Assembly (NCBI GenBank): GCA_040902845.1
Contig: JBBDWM010000024.1
Span: 25,854-89,853, forward strand
Reading direction: 5' to 3'
From: Acidimicrobiia bacterium
Lineage (GTDB): Bacteria; Actinomycetota; Acidimicrobiia; Spongiisociales; ZC4RG35
DNA length: 64,000 nt
Part shown: one piece after another, positions 1 to 13,509 of the stretch
Numbering within the stretch: position 1 is the stretch's first letter
How the letters are laid out: each line of letters begins with the position of its first letter
Program-made: the position numbers and the translations under genes
The notes under the pieces: generated by a model
Told to the model about the DNA's origin: nothing
What the model saw: only the letters and a program-made list of their open reading frames with translations
Database searches by the model: none

Positions 1-870
1 TCGCGAGGCCAGGGCAAGAAGAAGCGCCGAGACAGTTGTCAACACACCCATGAGCCTCAATGTGTTCCCGTGCCCAAACCACTTCTCGGAGACCGAGCCC
101 CACGTGATCCTGGCAGCGACGCCAACGAGCCCAACGCCCGCGATCAGAAGTCCCGCCTTGGACGCGGTCCATCCCTGGTCCTCCTCGGCAAAAAGTGGAA
201 GAAAGGTAAACGTTGCGGAAGTCGCCATGCCCGCGAGGCTTCCGTACACCGCGATGTACCGCACGACCAACGGCAGCCGGTCGCTCTCACCCGACCGCGC
301 TATGGGGTGGTGTGTCCCCTCCGGACGGCGCCACATCGCAAGGAGCGCCCCAAAGGGCACGACGAGAAAGGCCGCGATCGCCACCCGCCAGTCCCAGATG
401 GTGGCCACCGTTGTGAGCAACAGCCCACCGATGAAAGTCCCCATCTGGACACCTGACTGCTTGATCCCGGTCACCACGCCTCTGGCTCCGGATGGCAGGT
501 TGTCGACTATCAGGGCGTTTGTGGCGGGGTTGGCCCATCCCTGGGGGATCCCCGTGAACACTGCAACAAGGAGCAGTACCACGTAGGTCGGAGCCAGAGA
601 GATCAAGGTCAGGCTGACGACACCAGCCAACAGCACTCCGATCGTCGAGCGGACGGCGCCGACGCGATCCGTGACCCGCCCCAACGTGGGCGAGAGGAAA
701 GCCCCGGTCAAGGCGGTGGCAGTGACCAGCGCCCCTACCTGCCAACGTGCCACGTCGAAGTCCACTTTGAGGTCGGCTGCTAACACGCCAAACATGACCT
801 GGGGGAAGGTGGCCACAGCCATGGTGGCCGCGGCGACGGCGGCAAGTGAGGCCCTGTTGAATGGACGCAT
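1..870 (-). CDS. MFS transporter, N-terminal 290 aa (gene runs off the window start)
   Basis: Reverse-strand translation from the ATG at 870 gives MRPFNRASLAAVAAATMAVATFPQVMFGVLAADL..., with about 8 hydrophobic helices and the GRVTDRVG / PQGWANP motifs typical of MFS. It is absent from the ORF track because it touches the window edge. GC3 is high. Confidence 0.6.
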   Translation of the reverse strand, partial: MRPFNRASLAAVAAATMAVATFPQVMFGVLAADLKVDFDVARWQVGALVTATALTGAFLSPTLGRVTDRVGAVRSTIGVLLAGVVSLTLISLAPTYVVLLLVAVFTGIPQGWANPATNALIVDNLPSGARGVVTGIKQSGVQMGTFIGGLLLTTVATIWDWRVAIAAFLVVPFGALLAMWRRPEGTHHPIARSGESDRLPLVVRYIAVYGSLAGMATSATFTFLPLFAEEDQGWTASKAGLLIAGVGLVGVAARITWGSVSEKWFGHGNTLRLMGVLTTVSALLLALASR

Positions 871-905: not shown

Positions 906-1946
906 ATGTCTACGACACGGATCGCAGTGGGCACCCACAAGGGCGGATATGTAGTCGAGGGCAGCGGCCGCCAATGGTCGATCAAGGAGCCGCTCTTCCC
1001 CGGGTGGAAAGTGACTGCTTTCGGACGGGCCCCGAACGGGACAAATCTGGCCGCGGTCGGGAGCAACTGGTTCGGAGTCGGAATCCACACCAGTTCCAAC
1101 CTCCAGAACTGGGAACAGACCGATAGCCCGCCCGCCTGGCCCGAAGGTGGTGGTCGCAAGATGGAGCAGGTTTGGGCGATTCACAATGACGGCGCTCGTC
1201 TTTGGGCGGGTGTTTCCGAAGCCGGTTTGTTCAGCTCGGACGACGAGGGTCGGACCTGGGCCCCTATCGCCGGCCTCAACGAGCACGAGACCCGACCCGA
1301 ATGGAAGCCGGGGTTTGGTGGCCTGTGCGCCCATCGCATCCTCACGGCTGGCAGCCAGATCTGGGTCGGGATCTCGGCCGTGGGAGTCTTTCGCTCGGAC
1401 GACGGCGCCCATACCTGGCACCCCAAGAACGATGGAGTCCCACCCGCGGGCCTTGCCGGGGGTGCTCCCCGGCCCGATGTCGGTTACTGCGTGCACGGAC
1501 TCGCCCAGGACCCGAATAATCCCAATCGAATCTGGCGTCAGGACCACGCCGGGATGTTCCGCACCAATGATGGTGGAGACACCTGGGAGCTGATCGAGAA
1601 CGGTCTGCCTTCGGGATTCGGATTCGTGATCTGGAGGGACGACAGCAGTGGCAGACTCTTCACGATCCCTCTGACTTCGGACGAGAACCGGGTGCCCGTC
1701 GGCGGAGAGCTTCGTGTCTATGCGTCGGATGACGACGGTGAGAACTGGCAGGTGGCAGGGTCGGGATGGTCGGAAGCCCCTCAGTACACCGGGGTTCTGC
1801 GAGGCGCTTTCGACGGTGACAACCAGGGGCAGTTCTGCTTCGGCACCACCGGGGGGAAGTTGTGGCTCACCGATGACAACGGGAACGGCTGGCAGGAGTT
1901 GGCGCCCAGCTTCCCCCGGATCGACTCGATCCGGCTGCTCTCATGA
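906..1946 (+). CDS. BNR/Asp-box repeat beta-propeller protein (sialidase/Ycf48-like), apparently cytoplasmic
   Basis: It has five Asp-box motifs (SSDDEGRTW, RSDDGAHTW, RTNDGGDTW, ASDDDGENW, LTDDNGNGW) and no signal peptide. Confidence 0.6.
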   Translation: MSTTRIAVGTHKGGYVVEGSGRQWSIKEPLFPGWKVTAFGRAPNGTNLAAVGSNWFGVGIHTSSNLQNWEQTDSPPAWPEGGGRKMEQVWAIHNDGARLWAGVSEAGLFSSDDEGRTWAPIAGLNEHETRPEWKPGFGGLCAHRILTAGSQIWVGISAVGVFRSDDGAHTWHPKNDGVPPAGLAGGAPRPDVGYCVHGLAQDPNNPNRIWRQDHAGMFRTNDGGDTWELIENGLPSGFGFVIWRDDSSGRLFTIPLTSDENRVPVGGELRVYASDDDGENWQVAGSGWSEAPQYTGVLRGAFDGDNQGQFCFGTTGGKLWLTDDNGNGWQELAPSFPRIDSIRLLS

Positions 1947-2206
1947 CTGTCAAGGTCCGACTGCCCCGGATCCTGACTCAGACAGTCAGAGCGGGACTCC
2001 GTCATGAGGTGACAGGAGGCGATGTGGGACAGGTTCTTAACCGCCTGTTCGAAACCGAGCCAGGCCTCCGCAATCACCTGATCGACGAGGACGGCCAGAT
2101 CCGCACCCACGTCCTGGTATTCGTCGACGGTGAACGCGCCGACCTCACCACTCCTGTCCCCGACGGCGGTGAAGTTCAGGTGCTACAGGCCGTCAGCGGC
2201 GGGTGA
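1943..2206 (+). CDS. MoaD/ThiS-family ubiquitin-like sulfur-carrier protein with C-terminal GlyGly
   Basis: The 87-aa protein ends ...VQVLQAVSGG-stop. Its ATG overlaps the upstream stop (ATGA). It has the beta-grasp size and the GG terminus characteristic of MoaD/ThiS/CysO. Confidence 0.6.
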   Translation: MTVKVRLPRILTQTVRAGLRHEVTGGDVGQVLNRLFETEPGLRNHLIDEDGQIRTHVLVFVDGERADLTTPVPDGGEVQVLQAVSGG

Positions 2207-2626
2207 CCCGGCGCCGGGAACGACCCGCGTCGGACGACTGAAGACAAACCAGAGGGCAAACACCCCGACCGCGCCAAGGATGATCCTCAACACGACAACG
2301 TCGATGAGGACGATGGCCGAGAGCCCGAGAGAAAGCGTGATGGCGACGGCAGCGATCCACTTCATGCGGATGGTGAGGCCACCTGAGCGGTAGCCCTTGA
2401 TCATCTTTCCGTACACCGGGTGGTTGACCAGCCATCCGTGGAGCTTGTCGGAGGACATCGAAAAGAAGAAGGCGGCCAGGATCACAAAGTCGAAAGTCGG
2501 AATCCCGGGAAGGAAGCTGATGGCCACGAACCCGAGGCAGATGAGCCCGAGAACCAGATAGATCCCGCGCAGGACACGGCTGCGTGGCTTTCGGGACGCG
2601 ACAGGTTGGTCGACGCTTGGCGTCAC
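2183..2626 (-). CDS. YbaN/DUF454 family inner-membrane protein
   Basis: The 147-aa protein has 3-4 TM helices, with LRGIYLVLGLICLGFVAISFLPGIPTFDFVILAAFFF typical of DUF454. Confidence 0.6.
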   Translation of the reverse strand: MTPSVDQPVASRKPRSRVLRGIYLVLGLICLGFVAISFLPGIPTFDFVILAAFFFSMSSDKLHGWLVNHPVYGKMIKGYRSGGLTIRMKWIAAVAITLSLGLSAIVLIDVVVLRIILGAVGVFALWFVFSRPTRVVPGAGSPAADGL

Positions 2627-4392: not shown

Positions 4393-5043
4393 GTGAGTGA
4401 GTACTCACTCAGTTATCCTCCCCCGCCCGTGACCTCCAAATCCACCAGAGCTGAGCCACTGGCTCCCGACGACCGCCGTCGCGCCATCATCGCCGCCGTC
4501 ATCCCCCTCCTCACCCAGCACGGGGCGGCGGTGACCACCAAGCAGATGGCCGAAGCGGCCGGCATCGCCGAGGGCACCATCTTCCGGGTCTTTCCCGACA
4601 AGGCGGCCTTGATCCACGAGGCGGTCAGATTCAGCATGGATCCGGCACCGGTTGAAAAGGGCCTGTCGGAGATCTCGGCTTCGGCTCCCATCAAGATCCA
4701 GTTGGCTGAAGCCGCCGACATCATCCTGGAACGCTTCGAAGGAGTCATCGCACTGATCACCGCCCTTCGCACCTCACCTTCGAGCGACTCGACCCCGCTC
4801 CCAAGTCCGCCGGCCTTCGTGGCCGAAGCGAATGCAGCCATCAACCATTCCCTGACCGAGTTGTTCGCACGACACCGCGATCTCCTGCGGATCGAGCCTT
4901 CTCGGGCAGCAGCCGCCTTTCGGGCTCTCATCTTCGCCGGCGGCCATCCGATGACGAGCCGAGGACAGAAGCTCACCGTCAGCGAGATCGTCGATGTGCT
5001 GCTCTCCGGGATCCTCGATCCGGTTGTAGAGGAGGTGATCTGA
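4393..5043 (+). CDS. TetR-family transcriptional regulator
   Basis: It has an N-terminal HTH (TTKQMAEAAGIAEGTIFRVFPDKAAL). It precedes, and is stop/start overlapped with, the ABC exporter pair. The true start may be a downstream GTG. Confidence 0.8.
   Translation: MSEYSLSYPPPPVTSKSTRAEPLAPDDRRRAIIAAVIPLLTQHGAAVTTKQMAEAAGIAEGTIFRVFPDKAALIHEAVRFSMDPAPVEKGLSEISASAPIKIQLAEAADIILERFEGVIALITALRTSPSSDSTPLPSPPAFVAEANAAINHSLTELFARHRDLLRIEPSRAAAAFRALIFAGGHPMTSRGQKLTVSEIVDVLLSGILDPVVEEVI
4394..4411. promoter_or_regulatory. 18-bp perfect palindrome TGAGTGAGTACTCACTCA at the TetR start; candidate autoregulatory operator
   Basis: It is a perfect inverted repeat overlapping the annotated GTG of the TetR gene. 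TetR regulators typically bind palindromes in their own promoter. Confidence 0.5.
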
Positions 5044-6776
5044 TGTTGCTTCGTATCGCCAGGGAGTACCTCAGGCCCTACAAGAAATGGCTGACCATCG
5101 TGGTGGTTCTCCAAGCGATTGGGACCATCGCCTCGCTGTATCTCCCAAGCCTGAATGCAGACATCATTGACAACGGCGTAGTGGCCGGAGACACCGCGTA
5201 CATAGTCCGTGTCGGTGTCGTGATGCTGGCCGTCTCGCTGCTGCAGGTGGTCTGCTCTATCACCGCCGTCTACTTCGCAGCACGCACCGCAATGAGCTTC
5301 GGTCGTGAGCTGAGGTCATCGATCTTCCATCGGGTGGCCGAATTCTCGAGTCGCGAGGTGGCCGGATTCGGGGCGCCTTCCCTCATCACTCGAAACACCA
5401 ACGACGTCCAACAAGTCCAGATGCTGGCCCTGATGACCCTCACCATGATGGTGATGGCCCCGATCATGATGGTCGGAGGCGTGATCATGGCGCTTCGCCA
5501 GGATGTCGGCCTCTCCTGGTTGGTCTTGGTTGCCGTCCCGGCCCTCGGGGTGATAGTCAGCTTCATCATTTCCCGAATGGTCCCTGCCTACCGGGTGATG
5601 CAGAAGCGCATCGACACCGTCAACCGGGTGCTGCGGGAGCAAACCTCCGGCATCCGGGTCCTCCGCGCTTTCGTCCGGGAACCGTTCGAAACCGAGAGGT
5701 TTGGACGGGCCAATCGAGAGTTAACAGACGTCTCTGTAACGGTCGGGCGTTGGATGGCCGCCATGTTCCCCGCGGTGATCCTGGTGCTGAACGTCGCATC
5801 CGTCGCGGTGCTCTGGTTCGGCGGCATCAGGGTCGACGCCGGAGTCATGGAGATCGGTTCTCTGACGGCCTTTCTGGCCTATCTGGTCCAGATCCTGATG
5901 TCGGTGATGATGGCGACCTTCATGCTGGTGATGGTGCCCAGGGCATCCGTCTCCGCCGACCGCATCGCCGAGGTGCTCGACACCGAGTCCTCTGTCGTGC
6001 CACCGGCCTCAGGTGTCACCGAGGTCAAAGGACGTGGCGAACTCGAATTGCGCGGTGTTGGGTTCAGCTATCCAGGGGCGAGCCATCCGGTACTCCACGA
6101 TGTCACATTCTCGGCCCGCCCAGGTCAGACCACCGCCATTGTCGGCTCCACGGGCGCTGGCAAGACAACCTTGATCAACCTCATCCCCCGCCTCTTCGAC
6201 ACCACCGAGGGAAGTGTCCTGGTCGATGGCGTCGATGTCCGTGAACTCGATCCCGACACGCTCTGGTCCAAGGTGGGTCTTGTTCCCCAAAAGCCATATC
6301 TCTTCTCCGGAACCGTTGCCTCGAATCTGCGCTACGGAAAACCGGCCGCAACTAAAGAGGAGATGTGGGAGGCGCTCGAGATTGCCCAGGCACGTGACTT
6401 TGTCGAGGAGATGCCAGACGGGCTCGAGGCGCCTATCTCCCAGGGTGGCACCAACGTATCTGGAGGACAACGTCAACGGCTCGCCATCGCTCGGGCGCTT
6501 ATCCGCCGTCCCGAGCTCTACCTCTTCGACGATTCCTTCTCGGCGCTCGATCTCGCCACCGACGCCCGGCTGCGACGCGCTCTGAAACCGACCACGGCCG
6601 ATGCCACCGTCGTGATCGTTGCCCAGCGGGTGTCCACCATTGCCGACGCTGACCAGATCCTCGTCCTCGAGGCTGGGGTGGTTGTTGGGCTCGGTACTCA
6701 CAACTCGCTGTTGGCGACCTGCCCGACATACATCGAGATCGTTGAGTCGCAGCTGAGGGCCGAGGTGGCCTCGTGA
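5043..6776 (+). CDS. ABC transporter permease/ATP-binding protein (type I exporter half-transporter)
   Basis: It has six TM helices followed by an NBD with Walker [10 protein letters not shown], signature [15 protein letters not shown] and Walker [13 protein letters not shown]. Confidence 0.9.
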
Positions 6777-8764
6777 GCGATCGGACGATGAAGGCAACCG
6801 AACGGATCCAGGGTCAGCCCGGCCCGGGTCGAGGCCCCTTCGGCGGTGGAATGATCGGTCAGAAATCCTCAGCCTTCGGCCCTTCAGCCAGACGTTTGAT
6901 GGGCCGCCTGCGACCTCAGCAGGCGAAAGTCATCGCAGTATTCGCTGCCGGAACGATGAGCGTGGCCCTTTCCGCGATTGGTCCCAAAGTCCTGGGCACA
7001 GCCACAGACTTGATATTCGCCGGGGCGATTGGCAGGAGTCTCCCGACCGGGATCACGAAAGCAGAAGCCATCGCCGGAGCCCAGGCTTCGGGCCAGAATC
7101 AGTTCGCCGCTTTGCTCTCTGGGATGAAGGTCGTGCCCGGACAGGGCATTGACTTCGCGGCTCTCGGCCAGGTGCTCATGGTCGTGCTTGCCCTCTATGT
7201 CGGATCGGCACTGCTCGGGTACCTTCAGGGCTTCCTCCTGAACGACGTGGTGCAGCGAACTGTGTTCCGTTTGCGCTCAGACGTCGAAGACAAGTTGAAC
7301 CGGCTCCCGCTCCGCTACTTCGATCGGCAGCCCCGAGGGGAACTACTGAGTCGGGTGACGAATGACATCGACAATGTCTCACAGAGCCTTCAACAGACGA
7401 TGAGCCAGCTCCTGACTTCGCTGCTGACGATCGTGTTCGTAATGGGGATGATGTTCTACATCTCCCCCACCCTGGCGCTCATCGCCCTCGTGACTATCCC
7501 GATCACAATGGTCATCGCAGGGCTGGTCATGCGAAAGTCCCAACGGCAGTTCGTCTCTCAGTGGAGACGCACCGGCAGCCTGAACGCCCAGATCGAAGAG
7601 TCGTTCACCGGGCATTCCTTGGTCAAGATCTTCGGCCGCCAGAAAGAGGTGCAGGCCACCTTCGAGGTTGAGAACGATGGGCTATACGAGGCCAGCTTCC
7701 GGGCCCAGTTTCTCTCGGGGCTCATCATGCCGATCATGATGTTCATTGGGAACCTGAACTACGTGATCATCGCCGTGGTTGGAGGGCTTCGAGTCGCCAG
7801 CGGGACCATGAGCCTCGGCGACGTGCAGGCGTTCGTTCAGTACTCACGCCAATTCACCCAGCCAGTCACCCAGGTCGCCTCAATGGTCAACCTTCTGCAA
7901 TCAGGTGTGGCATCGGCCGAGCGGGTCTTCGAGCTGCTCGACGCCGAAGAGGAAGTTCCGGATGACCACCATCCCAGCATGGTGGGAGAAAGACACGGCC
8001 GTGTCGTTTTCGAAGATGTGTCCTTCAAGTACGAAGAGGACCGCCCCCTTATCGAGGATCTGAGCTTGAACATCGAGCCGGGCCATACGGTGGCCATCGT
8101 CGGCCCCAACGGCGCAGGCAAGACGACGTTGGTGAATCTGATTATGCGGTTCTACGAGCTCGATGAGGGTCGCATCTCGATCGACGGTATCGACATCGCC
8201 CGGCTGCGCCGGTCCGACCTTCGCTCCGGGATCGGCATGGTGCTCCAGGACACCTGGTTGTTCCATGGGACGATTCGGGAGAACATCGCCTACGGGCGGC
8301 CCAACGCGACCGAGGACGAGATCATGGAGGCGGCCCAGGCCACGTTCGTCGATCGCTTCGTCCACAGTCTCCCGGACGGTTACGACACCGTCATCGACGA
8401 CGAAGGCGCAAGCGTCAGCACCGGGGAGAAGCAGTTGATCACCATCGCACGTGCCTTCCTCGCCGACCCCGCGTTGTTGATCCTCGACGAGGCCACCAGT
8501 TCGGTCGATACCCGGACTGAGCTCTTGGTCCAGCACGCGATGGCGGCACTCCGGACCGACCGCACCAGCTTCGTGATTGCCCACCGGCTTTCGACCATCA
8601 GGGACGCCGACCTGATCCTGGTTATGGAACAGGGCCGGATCGTGGAGCAGGGAAACCATTCCGAGCTCATCGCCCTCGACGGGTCCTACGCCACTCTCTA
8701 CAACTCGCAGTTCATGGGATCGGACCAGCCACCGGAGCCCGAGCCGGCGATGAAGGTGGCGTAG
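6773..8764 (+). CDS. ABC transporter permease/ATP-binding protein (partner half-transporter, heterodimeric exporter)
   Basis: It overlaps the first half-transporter by 4 nt. The NBD has GPNGAGKTT, signature [14 protein letters not shown] and [12 protein letters not shown], plus an extended N-terminal extracytoplasmic loop. Confidence 0.9.
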
Positions 8765-8860
8765 GGCTTAGCCCCCTCGATCGCACTCGCTGCGCTCGTT
8801 GGCGATCGGTCCCCCGCTCCGCAGGGGGACAAGCCTTGGGTGCGAAGCCGACCGGCAATC
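8765..8860 (+). terminator. Conserved 3' element with hairpin GTCCCCCGCTCCGCAGGGGGAC (8809-8830); homologous copy at 58712-58800
   Basis: It has a 7-bp GC stem with an 8-nt loop about 45 nt after the ABC stop. The flanks (TAGG.C..GCCCCCTCG ... GAAGCC.CCGACCGGC) align to the region after the SDR gene. Confidence 0.45.
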
Positions 8861-9731
8861 AATCAGCCCAACGATGGACCCGGATCGCCTCGGGATCGAG
8901 GCCGATTCCCCGACAAAAGACCTCGAAATCCTCGGCCGGCACTCCCCGCCATTCCAGGTCGTCGAGAGTCTCCGCTATCGGCACATCGAGGCGAAGGGTG
9001 GTCAGCTCCCGATAGAGGAAAGCCTCTTCGATGTGCTCGCGCAGGGTTGCCGCCAGCTTGTCCGCGCTGCGCACTGTCACCTGCCAGTCGGCAGAATCAG
9101 CCGGGATCAGCTCCAGACGGGGATACCGGAACAGCATGGTGGAGGCCGATTTCGCCCCCCAGCCCGGGAGCCCGGGGACACCATCGGCGGTGTCCCCCAC
9201 CAGGGCCAGGTAATCGGGGATCGACTCCGGATGGATCCCGAACTTCTCGACGACCGCAGCTTCGTCGAGGATCTTCTGCTCACGCCGGTTGTAGGTCACG
9301 ATGCGATCCCCGATTACCAGCTGGCACAGGTCCTTGTCTGGAGTGGCGATGACGACCTGCTCCACATCCTCCACCCAACGAATCGCTGCAGTTGCGAGGG
9401 CGTCGTCGGCCTCGTGCTCGATGTTGCGCCACACCACGACTCCGATCGCCTCCAGGCCTTCCTCGGCGAGGGGGAACTGCACCAGCAACTCGGGATCCAT
9501 GCCGGCCGAGGTCTTGTAGCCGGCGAACATGTCATTACGAAACGACTCGATCACGGTGTCGAAGCTGGCGGCCAAATGGGTGACACCAGGTTCGCGGAGA
9601 AGGGAGAGCGTCGATTCAATGATCCCGAGTGTCGCCCGAATATCGGAGCCGTCACGTGCCAGGACCGACTCCTTGCGACCGAAGTGGGCCCGGAACAGCT
9701 CATAGGTACCATCGAGGAGGTGGAGACGCAC
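8859..9731 (-). CDS. 5'-3' exonuclease (FEN/Pol I N-terminal domain family)
   Basis: The C-terminal 290 aa of the 430-aa track ORF, from a GTG: (M)RLHLLDGTYELFRAHFG...AVAFD...EADDALATAA...H3TH region. The track's upstream 140 aa are R-rich antisense of the plus-strand small gene. Confidence 0.7.
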   Translation of the reverse strand: MRLHLLDGTYELFRAHFGRKESVLARDGSDIRATLGIIESTLSLLREPGVTHLAASFDTVIESFRNDMFAGYKTSAGMDPELLVQFPLAEEGLEAIGVVVWRNIEHEADDALATAAIRWVEDVEQVVIATPDKDLCQLVIGDRIVTYNRREQKILDEAAVVEKFGIHPESIPDYLALVGDTADGVPGLPGWGAKSASTMLFRYPRLELIPADSADWQVTVRSADKLAATLREHIEEAFLYRELTTLRLDVPIAETLDDLEWRGVPAEDFEVFCRGIGLDPEAIRVHRWAD

Positions 9732-10052
9732 GACCCAGATCCTAAGCCCGATGAGGACGTGGACCCCTGGGACACGGTCACGTCTGAGTTCGGGTCGTTG
9801 AGTGATCGACTGAAGGACACCTATCGACGGGTGGCCGCCGACCGCGGCCCATCTGAAGACGAGATCAAAGGAGCGTTTGCAACCCTGATCGGCGCCTGGG
9901 GCCAGGTCGCCGAGTCGGTTACGGGTGCCCTGCGCGACCCGGAGGCGAGAGAGCATCTCAAGAAGGCGGCCAGCTATTTCGCCTCCGCCCTCGGCTCCAC
10001 GGTCAGCGACCTCGGAGACGAGATCAAAGGTCATTCGGACGAAGAGGAATAG
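9721..10052 (+). CDS. Small acidic hypothetical protein (start GTG 9721 or 9760), divergent from the exonuclease
   Basis: It is the C-terminal part of spurious track ORF 8799-10052: ...DPWDTVTSEFGSLSDRLKDTYRRVAADRGPSEDEIKGAFATLIGAWGQVAESVTGALRDPEAREHLKKAASYFASALGSTVSDLGDEIKGHSDEEE. GC3 is about 77% and the composition is protein-like with amphipathic helices. Confidence 0.4.
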
Positions 10053-10072
10053 CTGAGCGCCCTGGATGGAAT

Positions 10073-10876
10073 GTGTCTGATCATCTGATCTCGACAGGCG
10101 AGCTGGTTGAAAAACTCGACGAGGTTGCCCTGTTCGATCTCCGTTGGTCACTCACCGACCCAAGCCAAGGGAGAGGGGCCTATGCGACAGGGCACATCCC
10201 TGGCGCGATCTTCGTCGATCTCGATACCGACCTGACTTCGCCACAAGGAGATGGCCGTCATCCCTTGCCCTCTGCCGCTGAATTCAGCCGAACCCTCGGC
10301 AGGCTCGGAGTTGGCCCCAGTGACGAGATCGTCGTCTACGACGACATGGGCGGCGCCGTTGCCGCCCGGATGTGGTGGATGTTGCGCTCGATCGGCCACG
10401 AAGGTTCACGGCTCCTGGACGGCGGTCTGGGGGCGTGGATCGATGCCGGTCTGCCGGTCATCGATGACGAGACCTACCGAGGCTCCGGCGAGTACCCGGC
10501 CGTCGACGGCTTCACCGGGGTGGTGAACGTGGACCAACTGACCGGCCGCCATCTCATCGATGCCAGAGCTCCTGAGCGATATCGGGGCGAGGTGGAGCCG
10601 GTCGATCCCAAGGCCGGCCATATCCCCGGTGCGGTCAACATGCCCCTCAGTGGCAACCTCGGCCCGAAGGGTCGCTTTCTCGACCGCCTCGACCTTGTCA
10701 ATCGGTACCGGGACACGCCGGTGGACACGATTGTCTCGTGCGGTAGCGGGGTGAGTGCCTGTCAGGTTGCGCTGGCCCTGGTCGTAGCCGGCCATCCGAT
10801 GCCGGACGTCTACATCGGCTCGTTCTCGGACTGGTCCCGCCGTGACCTACCGGTGGCCACGGGCGACCTTCCTTGA
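10073..10876 (+). CDS. sseA: Thiosulfate/3-mercaptopyruvate sulfurtransferase (tandem rhodanese domains)
   Basis: GTG start; it has two rhodanese domains and an active-site loop CGSGVSAC. Confidence 0.8.
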   Translation: MSDHLISTGELVEKLDEVALFDLRWSLTDPSQGRGAYATGHIPGAIFVDLDTDLTSPQGDGRHPLPSAAEFSRTLGRLGVGPSDEIVVYDDMGGAVAARMWWMLRSIGHEGSRLLDGGLGAWIDAGLPVIDDETYRGSGEYPAVDGFTGVVNVDQLTGRHLIDARAPERYRGEVEPVDPKAGHIPGAVNMPLSGNLGPKGRFLDRLDLVNRYRDTPVDTIVSCGSGVSACQVALALVVAGHPMPDVYIGSFSDWSRRDLPVATGDLP

Positions 10877-11832
10877 TCAGCCATAGGGCCCTGGAAGCCC
10901 TCGAATCGTCAGACACCGACGAGCTGCTGCGGGTGATCGACGGTTTGTGCTCGACCCAAGCCTGGGACGGTTTGGTTGAGTTGCGAACCCGGTGTCGAGA
11001 GGCAGTGGAGAGGGGCAAACAAGTGTGGGGCGTTGAGGAGCACATTCGTTATCGCCTGACTCTGGAGGCGCCACCGACCTATGCCGGAGCCGCCGTCTCC
11101 GAAGGCCAATCACGATTTGCCCTGGGGCCTCTTGGCGAGGTCGCTGCCAGCACCAAGACCTGGCAGGAGATGGAGCCTCATCTCGAGATCGGGCCCGAGC
11201 GTCGGACCCTTGCCGCGGAGCGTGTCGTCCGCGGCGAGCGAGTGGAGGAGCCGGGTCTCGACCTGCCCGGCTGGTTGGAAGACTGGGAGCCCCGCTATCA
11301 GGTGGCCACCTACAAGCGGGACAAGGTAGAGGCACCCTCACCTCCCCCACCGAATGTCTCCGAGACTCCCCTTCCCGCTGGTTTTGATCTGGTCGACGAC
11401 CCTCATTCGGAGGCCGCGCTCGCCGATCTGGTTCAGCCTTGGACGGACGAGTCCAACGGGCGTTGTCAGACCACAGCCGTGGCCGGGGACCATCTGGCCG
11501 CCATCCGCTCCCTCGGCGCAACCCTTTGTCGTGAGGCCAGCATCGGCGGCGTCGCCGGTCTGGCCTGGATGGGGTGGGCCGCGGCCTCGGGTGGGGCCCA
11601 CGGCAGGCGACGCGGAGCTGCCGCCGGCCGTCAGCTGGCGTGGTGGGCGACGTCGGTCATGGCCGATCTCCCATGGCCCTGCGCGCCGGACGATCTGGGG
11701 GCGGCAGCGTCTCGGTTTGGCTGGTTCTGGTTCGACGACGGGAGCCCGGGCACTGGGTGGGCCCTGCGTCTCGCCATCGAAGACCCCGACAGCGGGCTGG
11801 CATGGGCGATCTCGGCCGTCGACCTCACCTGA
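10873..11832 (+). CDS. Hypothetical protein, TTG start overlapping the rhodanese stop (TTGA)
   Basis: The 319-aa protein has balanced composition with an E/D/L-rich N-terminus and is translationally coupled to sseA. The antisense ORFs here are R/P-rich artefacts. Confidence 0.5.
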   Translation: MISHRALEALESSDTDELLRVIDGLCSTQAWDGLVELRTRCREAVERGKQVWGVEEHIRYRLTLEAPPTYAGAAVSEGQSRFALGPLGEVAASTKTWQEMEPHLEIGPERRTLAAERVVRGERVEEPGLDLPGWLEDWEPRYQVATYKRDKVEAPSPPPPNVSETPLPAGFDLVDDPHSEAALADLVQPWTDESNGRCQTTAVAGDHLAAIRSLGATLCREASIGGVAGLAWMGWAAASGGAHGRRRGAAAGRQLAWWATSVMADLPWPCAPDDLGAAASRFGWFWFDDGSPGTGWALRLAIEDPDSGLAWAISAVDLT

Positions 11833-11835
11833 CCT

Positions 11836-11890
11836 CTCGTAATTGGGACCCACAGGGCCGCATATGACCCCTGTGGGTCCCAATTACGAG
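11836..11890. repeat. 55-bp palindromic element, copy A: CTCGTAATTGGGACCCACAGGG-11 nt-CCCTGTGGGTCCCAATTACGAG (REP/MITE-like)
   Basis: It has a 22-bp perfect inverted repeat with an 11-nt loop between convergent genes. It generates the MGPTGPHMTPVGPNY-type spurious ORF starts seen in the track on both strands. Confidence 0.75.
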
Positions 11891-11896
11891 GGGGCG

Positions 11897-13441
11897 TCAA
11901 CCCACCACGGTCTCGATGGTGTGCCATCCGGTGGCGCCATTGGGTGCCGGGGGGACGATCTCGTCGGTCTGGAGATCTCCGTCCCCGTCGGTGGCACGCA
12001 CCCGGATCACATAGGCGCCGACGGGGGCGTCCCATTCGATGGACCACTGCCGCCAACTGTTGTCCGACAACGGCTCGGACAGCTCGGCCTCCAACCAATC
12101 GGTGCCCTCACCCAGCTGGACCTCGACCTTCGCGATCCCGCGGTTTGGCGCCCAGGCGACACCGGCGACCTGACGAGGCCCGCCGGGGATCTGCGCCCCT
12201 GGCGGTGGGGTGTCAATCCGGCTCTGGGTCTTCACCGGCGCCTCTTTCGACCAACCTCTCGGCACCCAATAAGCGTCGAAGTCATCCCAACGAGTGAGCT
12301 CGATCTCCGAAATCCACTTGGTCGCCGACACGTACCCGTAGAGACCCGCCACCACCAGTCGGGCCGGGAACCCGTGCTCGAACGGGAGCGGTTCGTCGTT
12401 CATCCCGACTGCAACGAGTGCGTCGCGGCCGTCGTAGGCGACCTCGACCGGGAACCCGACTGTGAAGTCATCAACCGAGCGGCCGACGATTTGCTCCGCA
12501 TCGGGATCGACCCCGGCCCGGTTCAGGATCTCGGTCAGCGGGACCCCGAGCCACTTGGCGTTTCCGACCAGGTTCCCTCCCACTTGGTTGGAGACACATG
12601 ACAGGGTGACGTAGCGCTCCACCATCCGAAGGTCGAGAAGGTCGGCGTAAGTGATGGAGTAGGGACGGTCGACCATCCCCTTGATGGTGAGGGTCCACTC
12701 CGGAAGGTCCACTCTGGGAACGGAGAAGGCAGCGTCGATGCGGTAGAACGCCTCGTTGGATGTGACTACGGGGCTCAGACCTGAGACCCCGAGCTCGGCC
12801 CCGGGAGGCACCGGGCCCACCGCCTGAGCCGGGCCGGGGAGAACAACTTCGGCTCGTCCGGCGACAGCGCGCTTGGCCCGCTCCAGCAGTGCCCGGCCTG
12901 CCCCTGCGGACAACGCGGCCAACCCGAGCACCGCGCTCACACCGACAATGAAAGAGCGACGAGAGGCATCGCGTGGTGGGTCGATGTTTTCGCTCCCGAC
13001 CACCGGTGCCGAGCTCCCGAGCAGCCACTGCAATGAGACCAGACCGGTGATCGCCGCCAGACCTCCCGAGATCATCGCCATCCCGAGACTCACTGCCGGG
13101 TCACGACTCGCAGCCAGGGCGGCCAGCAGCCCAAAGCCGATGAACACCACCATGGCGACCCCGAATTGCTTCCTGGCGACTACGCCTACAGCTGCACCCA
13201 CCAGGATCACCACGAGCGTCATACCGATGAGAAGGGCCAGCTTGTCGTTGGTACTGAAGACAGATATGGCCCAGTGCTTGATCGGCTCCGGAACGATGTC
13301 GATCACCCAGTTGCCAACACCTTCGATCAGCGAGGGAAGGCTCGAGAAGATGCCGGCAGCGAGCTCGGAGACACCGAGGGCGAGGGCCGCGGCTGCGGCC
13401 CCGGACAGAGCGTCTCGGGCTCGTATCGATCTCATTGGCAT
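11897..13441 (-). CDS. Sulfite-oxidase-family molybdopterin oxidoreductase with N-terminal membrane anchor
   Basis: It has N-terminal TM helices, then an Oxidored_molyb domain (LSCVSNQVGG, GMNDEPLPFEHGFPARLVVAGLYGYVSATKWISEIE) and a Mo-co dimerisation domain. The first 17 codons of the track ORF are AT-rich, so the likely start is MPMRSIRAR at 13441. Confidence 0.75.
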   Translation of the reverse strand: MPMRSIRARDALSGAAAAALALGVSELAAGIFSSLPSLIEGVGNWVIDIVPEPIKHWAISVFSTNDKLALLIGMTLVVILVGAAVGVVARKQFGVAMVVFIGFGLLAALAASRDPAVSLGMAMISGGLAAITGLVSLQWLLGSSAPVVGSENIDPPRDASRRSFIVGVSAVLGLAALSAGAGRALLERAKRAVAGRAEVVLPGPAQAVGPVPPGAELGVSGLSPVVTSNEAFYRIDAAFSVPRVDLPEWTLTIKGMVDRPYSITYADLLDLRMVERYVTLSCVSNQVGGNLVGNAKWLGVPLTEILNRAGVDPDAEQIVGRSVDDFTVGFPVEVAYDGRDALVAVGMNDEPLPFEHGFPARLVVAGLYGYVSATKWISEIELTRWDDFDAYWVPRGWSKEAPVKTQSRIDTPPPGAQIPGGPRQVAGVAWAPNRGIAKVEVQLGEGTDWLEAELSEPLSDNSWRQWSIEWDAPVGAYVIRVRATDGDGDLQTDEIVPPAPNGATGWHTIETVVG

Positions 13442-13509
13442 CAACCTAGGGCTGCCCTTGATAACGGGTGCTAAAGCAGAAGAAACATTCAATCAAATAG
13501 GGTGGGGAC

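Follow-up and report, generated by a model that had tools for sequence, protein, structure and literature searches.

We analysed a stretch of 64,000 nucleotides (nt) of Acidimicrobiia DNA (assembly GCA_040902845.1, contig JBBDWM010000024.1), hereafter the window, in which two overlapping genes encode a beta-propeller protein and a small sulfur-carrier-like protein of the ThiS/MoaD family (Table 1). The initial annotation, made from the sequence, had stated that the small open reading frame (ORF) ends in Ser-Gly-Gly and that its start codon overlaps the stop codon of the larger one, and both readings hold at the nucleotide level. The GC content at third codon positions is 0.75 in the propeller gene and 0.70 in the small gene; because this bias fits a window of 63% GC, both ORFs are considered real genes. 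An identical protein pair is encoded in the Acidimicrobiia metagenome-assembled genome (MAG) GCA_040881765.1. The carrier family itself is known; what is new here is a widely conserved and structurally unrelated propeller partner for it.

Table 1. Features of the locus, with coordinates counted from the first nucleotide of the window
Feature	Coordinates	Strand	Basis and remarks
Propeller gene, 346 amino acids	906..1946	+	ORF; cytoplasmic seven-bladed Asp-box beta-propeller, 3B7F family
ThiS/MoaD-family beta-grasp gene, 87 amino acids, ends ...LQAVSGG*	1943..2206	+	ORF; Pfam PF02597
ATGA start/stop overlap of propeller gene and small gene (ctcATGActg)	1943..1946	+	Sequence reading
Tail codons QAVSGG	2186..2203	+	Gly-Gly at 2198-2203
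His143 codon	1332..1334	+	86/86 sequences; start of inner strand (strand A), putative top face, from DSSP pattern and Asp-box topology (PMC2716378)
His197 codon	1494..1496	+	86/86 sequences; equivalent position, next blade
His214 codon	1545..1547	+	86/86 sequences; Q212-x-H214 motif
Arg299 codon	1800..1802	+	86/86 sequences; candidate carboxylate/thiocarboxylate ligand, putative role
DUF454/YbaN-like membrane protein gene, convergent	2183..2626	-	Pfam PF04304, E 1e-26; context, may fall outside the unit
Major facilitator superfamily (MFS) transporter gene, divergent	1..870	-	Pfam MFS_1, E 4e-35; truncated by the window edge; context

Relatives of the propeller were collected with a 10-sequence alignment, one genome being taken per species, and the 80 loci retained are the best-scoring of 538; more distant relatives were sampled solely via a plasmid collection, and the taxon labels of MAGs are those deposited. 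The 80 loci are distributed among Acidimicrobiia, Planctomycetota (Phycisphaerae and Pirellulales), Rhodothermales and other Bacteroidota, Alpha- and Deltaproteobacteria, Opitutales and Nitrospinaceae. A hidden Markov model (HMM) of the small protein detects a partner ORF directly downstream of the propeller gene in 84 of 85 loci, and in the sole exception the contig stops 83 nt past the propeller gene. Similarly, in a reverse scan of metagenomes seeded with the small protein, the propeller gene adjoins in 59 of the 59 loci that have space for a neighbour. Relatives of the pair show the same gene overlap or a gap of at most 10 nt. The pairing is thus kept outside the source genome and outside Actinobacteria, in many phyla, and the adjacency of propeller and carrier is far above chance.

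It is also evident that gene order can be inverted while adjacency is kept. The small gene comes first in Ralstonia solanacearum, R. pseudosolanacearum (including GMI1000), Burkholderia and Mitsuaria, as well as in Cupriavidus metallidurans CH34, one Pseudomonas aeruginosa record and the Bacteroidota species Chondrinema; Arthrobacter has the order of the window. Moreover, rare single polypeptides composed of a ThiS domain, a linker and a propeller occur in two lineages that are less than 50% identical to each other (P0205/P0329 and P0224), with the ...SGG kept internally. Because adjacency survives inversion, and given the fusions and the start/stop overlap, it appears that the two proteins work together physically. 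That they form a functional unit of some kind we regard as highly probable.

The setting of the pair varies among individual loci. One locus (L016) contains the whole pair twice in tandem (7992-9289 and 11506-12803), with an ADP-ribosylglycohydrolase gene between the copies. In P. aeruginosa pZYPA1927 (L160, 3211-4607), the pair is located amid genes resembling those of the core chromosome (MFS transporter, YciI, YbaK/EbsC, RhtA and PmpM). By gene order, the PAO1 equivalents of this pair would tentatively be approximately PA1355/PA1356.

The small protein belongs to Pfam family ThiS (PF02597; 27.8 bits against a cut-off of 22.5), and the same threshold is passed by the partners in Ralstonia and Chondrinema and by the ThiS parts of the fusion proteins. 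It stays below the cut-offs of narrower models, scoring 46.7 bits against 60 for the NCBIfam SAMP1 equivalog (NF041918) and 28.7 against 49.5 for moaD_arch (TIGR01687), and no further NCBIfam MoaD model was returned at E values up to 1. Among solved structures, SAMP1, CysO and a MoaD-related protein from Thermus are nearest to it in sequence. The AlphaFold2 (AF2) model is a beta-grasp with a mean predicted local distance difference test score (pLDDT) of 88 and a predicted template modelling score (pTM) of 0.79; Foldseek superposes it on SAMP1 (template modelling score, TM, 0.87) and CysO (0.86-0.88), then on MoaD-related proteins, MoaD and Urm1, and the BexX/CysO complex 4n6e is also among the fold matches. 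The beta-grasp fold proposed at the outset is therefore confirmed by the HMM assignment and by the predicted structure. In public annotation the small protein is a 'MoaD/ThiS family protein', and several homologues are called 'molybdopterin converting factor small subunit' by the Joint Genome Institute (JGI).

In 25 close homologues the C-terminal LQAVSGG tail is invariant, as are the motifs RLPR, EPGLRNH and IR(P/T)HV. Across phyla, 83 of the 84 partner ORFs share the tail motif [QHN][AS]x[SAT]GG, and Gly-Gly is the exact C-terminus in 69 of them. Since Gly-Gly is strict and exactly terminal, and the protein is close to CysO and SAMP1, it is probably activated at its C-terminus as other members of its family are.

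The propeller carries four exact Asp-boxes (S/TxDxGxxW, at residues 111, 220, 274 and 322), one near-exact copy (SDDGAHTW, 164-171, with the glycine at position 5 replaced by alanine) and one degenerate copy (SSNLQNW, 63-69), so that the five boxes counted originally were essentially right. Neither a signal peptide nor a transmembrane segment was found in the propeller, the maximal Kyte-Doolittle mean over 15 residues being 0.26 in the first 40 residues, in agreement with the earlier description of a protein that is not exported. Pfam returned solely generic Asp-box or Sortilin-Vps10 matches below the gathering score. In contrast to these, the PDB entry 3b7f is matched with E = 6e-33 by the single sequence (query residues 6-342, chain residues 25-388) and with E = 5e-100 over the full length by the profile of the family. 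The AF2 model (pLDDT 84, pTM 0.86) also has 3b7f as its best Foldseek match (TM 0.88, root-mean-square deviation 3.0), and GH74 domains, DAIP, Ycf48 and sortilin rank well below it. We assign the propeller to the 3B7F-type family of seven-bladed Asp-box propellers. The 3B7F protein itself (Reut_B4987 of Cupriavidus pinatubonensis JMP134, annotated as 'glycosyl hydrolase, BNR repeat') is 29% identical to the window propeller, belongs to the same family over its full length, and by alignment also has the invariant His143, His197, Gln212-x-His214, Arg219 and Arg299. It has been described as a seven-bladed Asp-box propeller with function 'not known' (PMC2716378).

Homologues of the propeller are labelled 'exo-alpha-sialidase' or 'sialidase family protein' by the Prokaryotic Genome Annotation Pipeline (PGAP). 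A GH33 sialidase was rejected because the translation has no match to BNR_2 (PF13088), no FRIP/RIP motif and no signal peptide; sialidases of the PDB match the family profile with E values of only about 1e-3 to 1e-5, across Asp-box stretches. A GH74 xyloglucanase was also rejected, since the catalytic cleft of GH74 requires two tandem seven-bladed propellers and the present protein is a single propeller of 346 amino acids. The GH74 fold matches, to targets of about 700-790 amino acids, are confined to one of their two domains, and the target-normalised TM is 0.16-0.33.

Among 86 sequences of the propeller family, Trp90, Trp133, His143, His197, His214, Gly239 and Arg299 are invariant (86/86), and Arg130, Gln212 (83/86), Arg219, Arg262 and Phe238 are nearly so. 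In the alignment and the strands of the model, the innermost strands of successive blades begin, at equivalent positions, with Trp90, His143, His197 and Arg299. Where the inner strands start, Asp-box propellers have their variable 'top' face, which surrounds the axis and carries the function; the Asp-boxes are on the opposite face (PMC2716378). From this placement we infer that the invariant His, Arg and Trp residues may form one pocket, and the three invariant histidines together with the arginines suggest catalysis or metal binding rather than docking alone. All invariant residues of the putative pocket are also kept in two metagenome proteins (P0239 and P0330, 704 amino acids) in which a family propeller follows an N-terminal Ser/Thr protein kinase domain.

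Genes beyond the pair were compared by clustering of ORFs within ±7 kb in 81 loci and by Pfam searches of the immediate neighbours in 78 loci. None of the recurrent immediate neighbours in the 78 loci is an E1-type activating enzyme, a JAMM peptidase, MoaE, a rhodanese or CysM, and ThiF/MoeB was found in none of about 85 neighbourhoods of ±8 kb. No MoaE was detected in the window or in the 85 loci (±8 kb) by phmmer with the E. coli and Chondrinema proteins, and the sole nearby MoaE is that of the Chondrinema plasmid. Within about 12 kb of the pair in the window, Pfam likewise identified neither an E1 or JAMM gene nor a cysteine synthase. The initial annotation had pointed out that such genes are missing next to the pair; this lack is general for the family and extends to MoaE and CysM, and the conclusion drawn there, that the pair is not a canonical MoaD-MoaE, ThiS-ThiG or CysO-CysM module, stands.

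The neighbours that do recur differ by lineage. In Planctomycetota, an extracytoplasmic function (ECF) sigma factor is an immediate neighbour in nine of the 78 loci and MoaA, directly downstream of the pair, in six; MoaB/Mog is directly upstream of the pair in two to three Rhizomicrobium loci; and the Chondrinema pair adjoins cysteine desulfurase, SufU, MoaE and XdhC. A DinB_2 protein directly follows the ThiS-like gene in three Planctomycetota loci (L051, 9293-9904; L055, 4664-5308; L066, about 9310-9787), and in a fourth (L057, 9075-9932) DinB_2 is fused to the ThiS-like protein immediately past ...AVSGG. The links of the pair to molybdenum cofactor (Moco) genes and to DinB_2 are weak and lineage-specific. 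These occasional sulfur- or thiol-related neighbours (MoaA, MoaB, cysteine desulfurase, SufU, MoaE, XdhC and DinB_2) are nevertheless counted in favour of sulfur chemistry.

Several Planctomycetota loci (L047, L051, L052, L054, L056, L061 and others; about 5000-10500) share a block consisting of a Ser/Thr kinase-tetratricopeptide repeat gene (-), an ECF sigma factor gene (+), the propeller gene, the ThiS-like gene and then MoaA or DinB_2. The recurrence of this kinase/ECF block suggests ECF/kinase control of the pair in Planctomycetota. YbaK/EbsC, in two loci, and VOC, in Rhodothermales and Pseudomonas only, were considered as linked neighbours and put down to chance. On a plasmid of Rhodobacter sp. 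CZR27 (L162, 589-4116), an unpaired propeller homologue is divergent to egtB-egtD, genes of ergothioneine synthesis; egtD was found in no locus other than this one.

Known systems offer several comparisons with the pair. CysO-CysM of Mycobacterium tuberculosis and BexX/CysO of Amycolatopsis likewise consist of a small Gly-Gly-ended carrier of the ThiS/MoaD class encoded beside the gene of its user enzyme, and CysO is nearly superposable on the small protein (TM 0.86-0.88). In the BexX system, the E1 is shared and encoded elsewhere. However, CysM is a pyridoxal phosphate enzyme and BexX a ThiG-like TIM barrel, whereas the partner here is a seven-bladed Asp-box propeller, and the adjacent cysteine synthase M and JAMM peptidase of the CysO-CysM-Mec module were found neither within about 12 kb in the window nor among the recurrent neighbours or in the JAMM motif scan. 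MoaD-MoaE also has a Gly-Gly-ended beta-grasp carrier, whose tail enters the active site of its partner, and Moco genes occasionally lie near the pair; it differs in that MoaE is absent from the 85 neighbourhoods, that the tail of E. coli MoaD reads FPPVTGG and that of the small protein QA[VL]SGG, and that the scores for MoaD models fall short. SAMP1 of Haloferax volcanii, the best HMM match of the small protein, is of equal length and shares the VSGG terminus; yet the pair is bacterial, its SAMP1 score is below the cut-off, no UbaA-type E1 or JAMM is linked to it, and the SAMP system has no counterpart of the propeller. Ycf48/HCF136 and the Vps10 domain of sortilin are Asp-box propellers as well, and in the matched structures Ycf48 is bound to a D1 peptide and sortilin to a PGRN peptide. 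Their likeness to the window propeller is at the level of fold and repeat only (TM about 0.5, 11-17% identity), and their locations and partners are different, but by analogy they may serve as a precedent for a propeller that grips the tail of its partner.

A unit for sulfur transfer or for tagging with a ubiquitin-like (Ubl) protein, with the propeller as partner, is the reading most consistent with the data, though unproven. Within it we tentatively favour a dedicated, physically interacting pair in which a carrier activated in trans serves the propeller as acceptor or effector, likely in sulfur transfer. A MoeB/MoeZ-type E1 from another locus of the genome would adenylate, and probably also thiocarboxylate, the Gly-Gly C-terminus of the carrier. 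The flexible QA[VL]SGG tail would then enter a pocket at the top face on the propeller axis, lined by the invariant His143, His197, His214, Arg299, Trp90 and Trp133 and the near-invariant Arg130, Gln212, Arg219 and Arg262, where the activated terminus would be consumed on a co-substrate, most likely by sulfur transfer; a metal bound by the three histidines may participate. We infer activation in trans because no E1 is linked to the pair; the tail would dock in the His/Arg pocket, and the chemistry would be sulfur transfer. A shared MoeZ that serves several carriers is established in actinomycetes (CysO and the BexX 2-thiosugar system). A more specific possibility, which we consider doubtful, is that the propeller is the founder of a new class of sulfur-carrier-dependent enzymes, in which a three-histidine and possibly metal-containing centre takes sulfur from the thiocarboxylated tail of the partner. 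If true, this would mean that at least seven bacterial phyla, with P. aeruginosa, Burkholderia, Ralstonia and Cupriavidus among their members, possess a pathway to a thio-metabolite or thio-cofactor that has yet to be discovered.

Several observations weigh against the pair of a trans-activated carrier and its acceptor. In the ThiS-propeller fusions Gly-Gly is internal and would therefore be activatable only after cleavage, and no protease gene linked to the pair was found. Fourteen of the 84 partner ORFs extend past Gly-Gly, by 1 to 24 residues save for one DinB_2-domain fusion, and a motif search for JAMM across the ORFs of the window and of the loci, which has low sensitivity, returned no credible candidate. 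The partner ORF of Nonomuraea gerenzanensis (L092, 5084-5395) ends in ...VLPALA, without Gly-Gly, and is either a decayed or a divergent partner. There are also propellers without a carrier: in the plasmid collection, the partner gene is lacking in four of the 14 regions examined, and homologues with the same invariant residues but no adjacent carrier occur in Streptomyces (two strains), Rhodobacter and Fuscovulum. Among the closest relatives of 3B7F in that collection, Streptomyces NBC_00184 and Rhodobacter have no adjacent carrier gene, and Arthrobacter is paired. Finally, neither the 81 clustered nor the 78 Pfam-scanned loci revealed a universal third gene that would hint at a co-substrate; the recurrent neighbours are lineage-specific and the rest are unrelated genes.

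Some of these observations would be explained if the small protein were never activated and acted as a structural or regulatory subunit, its tail plugging or regulating a propeller that is itself a ligand or metal binder or a sensor. Such a role has been proposed for TmoB and for MoaD-like domains that form part of other enzymes, and the ThiS-propeller fusions have Gly-Gly internally, where adenylation is impossible. The propeller fused to a Ser/Thr kinase (P0239) resembles a sensor domain, the Planctomycetota pair lies behind an ECF sigma factor and beside a Ser/Thr kinase, unpaired propellers retain the same invariant residues, and E1 is never adjacent. We nevertheless consider this subunit unlikely: a strict Gly-Gly that is exactly C-terminal in 69 of 84 proteins is the hallmark of activatable carriers and superfluous for a plug, the extensions past Gly-Gly look like pro-forms of processed carriers, and the sulfur-related neighbours favour chemistry. 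Conjugation of the small protein to lysines, as in Ubl tagging of the SAMP/TtuB type with the propeller as substrate receptor, ligase or main target, is an improbable account, although the protein modifier SAMP1 is the top match by HMM and by structure, the terminus is Gly-Gly with extensions like pro-peptides in 14 of 84 proteins, and the N-terminal Ubl fusions are reminiscent of ubiquitin fusion proteins. About 145 neighbourhoods yielded no E1, no E2 and no JAMM deconjugase (JAMM by the motif scan of low sensitivity), whereas known bacterial Ubl operons keep the genes of E1, E2 and JAMM together (PMC1779556); moreover, the putative invariant His/Arg pocket resembles a site for small molecules or a tail rather than a ligase.

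The small protein could also be the MoaD of the organism, with the propeller as an accessory to Moco biosynthesis that might, for example, store, chaperone or regulate MoaD or molybdopterin. MoaA lies downstream in the six Planctomycetota loci and MoaB/Mog upstream in the two to three Rhizomicrobium loci, MoaE, XdhC, cysteine desulfurase and SufU adjoin the Chondrinema pair, the JGI labels name the molybdopterin converting factor, the window codes for molybdenum enzymes and XdhC, and Moco synthesis is also a function of SAMP1, the closest relative that has been characterised. However, MoaE, the obligate partner of MoaD, is adjacent in none of the 85 loci, most neighbourhoods are without Moco genes, the score for moaD_arch (28.7 against 49.5) is below the cut-off, and the tail QA[VL]SGG departs from the FPPVTGG of E. 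coli MoaD. P. aeruginosa, Ralstonia and Burkholderia presumably have a canonical moaD-moaE elsewhere; the carrier of the pair would then be an extra paralogue. On balance a MoaD with a Moco accessory seems rather unlikely. Finally, a glycoside hydrolase (a sialidase or GH74-like enzyme) with an incidental ThiS-like neighbour would agree with the PGAP names and with GH74 xyloglucanases being next-best in sequence and fold. Its probability is very small, for the adjacency is nearly obligate from whichever gene the search starts and withstands both inversion and fusion, the protein consists of one propeller and has no signal peptide, no FRIP/RIP motif and no BNR_2 match, and the function of 3B7F is given as 'not known' (PMC2716378). 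We exclude it at that level because of these linkage statistics together with the failed tests for GH33 and GH74 membership.

Carriers of the ThiS/MoaD type are the prokaryotic ancestors of ubiquitin, and each of their known partners (MoaE, ThiG, CysM, TtuA, BexX, and the Qbs and Pdt enzymes) defines a distinct pathway of sulfur insertion. If its role as a partner is true, the propeller would extend this set by an acceptor of unrelated structure and, very probably, by a novel product. The pair is widespread, also in the genetically tractable P. aeruginosa, Burkholderia, Ralstonia and C. metallidurans, and a crystal structure of the 3B7F family has been available since 2007 with no function assigned. 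The present assignment also corrects a widespread annotation error, the labelling of the family as 'exo-alpha-sialidase'. In at least one transcriptome study, PA1356, by gene order a putative member of the pair, is regarded as an adhesion/biofilm factor (PMC11538994), presumably owing to the sialidase label. Neither a catalogue of prokaryotic ThiS/MoaD neighbourhoods from 2006 (PMC1779556) nor a survey of the beta-grasp fold from 2007 (PMC1949818) mentions a propeller or BNR partner, and no report that links MoaD with BNR, Asp-box or sialidase proteins in the sense of this pair was found in the literature searched.

Elsewhere in the window, an XdhC-like Moco-insertion chaperone is encoded at 44429-45498 (-), split into two ORFs, and a sulfite-oxidase-type molybdoenzyme at 11897-13492 (-); the organism therefore needs molybdopterin. 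Searches across the 64 kb by phmmer with E. coli MoaA-E, MoeA and MoeB revealed no gene of Moco biosynthesis or E1, XdhC alone being seen.

Downstream of the pair, the convergent DUF454 gene and the ThiS-like gene share 24 nt at their 3' ends, and then come genes for a class II fructose-bisphosphate aldolase, an F420H2-dependent reductase-like protein, a TetR regulator and two ABC exporters. DUF454 is an immediate neighbour in 17 of the 78 loci, in Acidimicrobiia only. The convergent arrangement is found in 58 Acidimicrobiia-type loci, including those from metagenomes, down to about 50% identity of the propeller, and in no other phylum. On the upstream side, the MFS gene is complete in locus L001. 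The start codons of the MFS and propeller genes are 35 nt apart (871-905), and there is no obvious Shine-Dalgarno sequence ahead of the propeller ATG; the short gap and this absence therefore suggest that the divergent promoters may be leaderless or overlapping.

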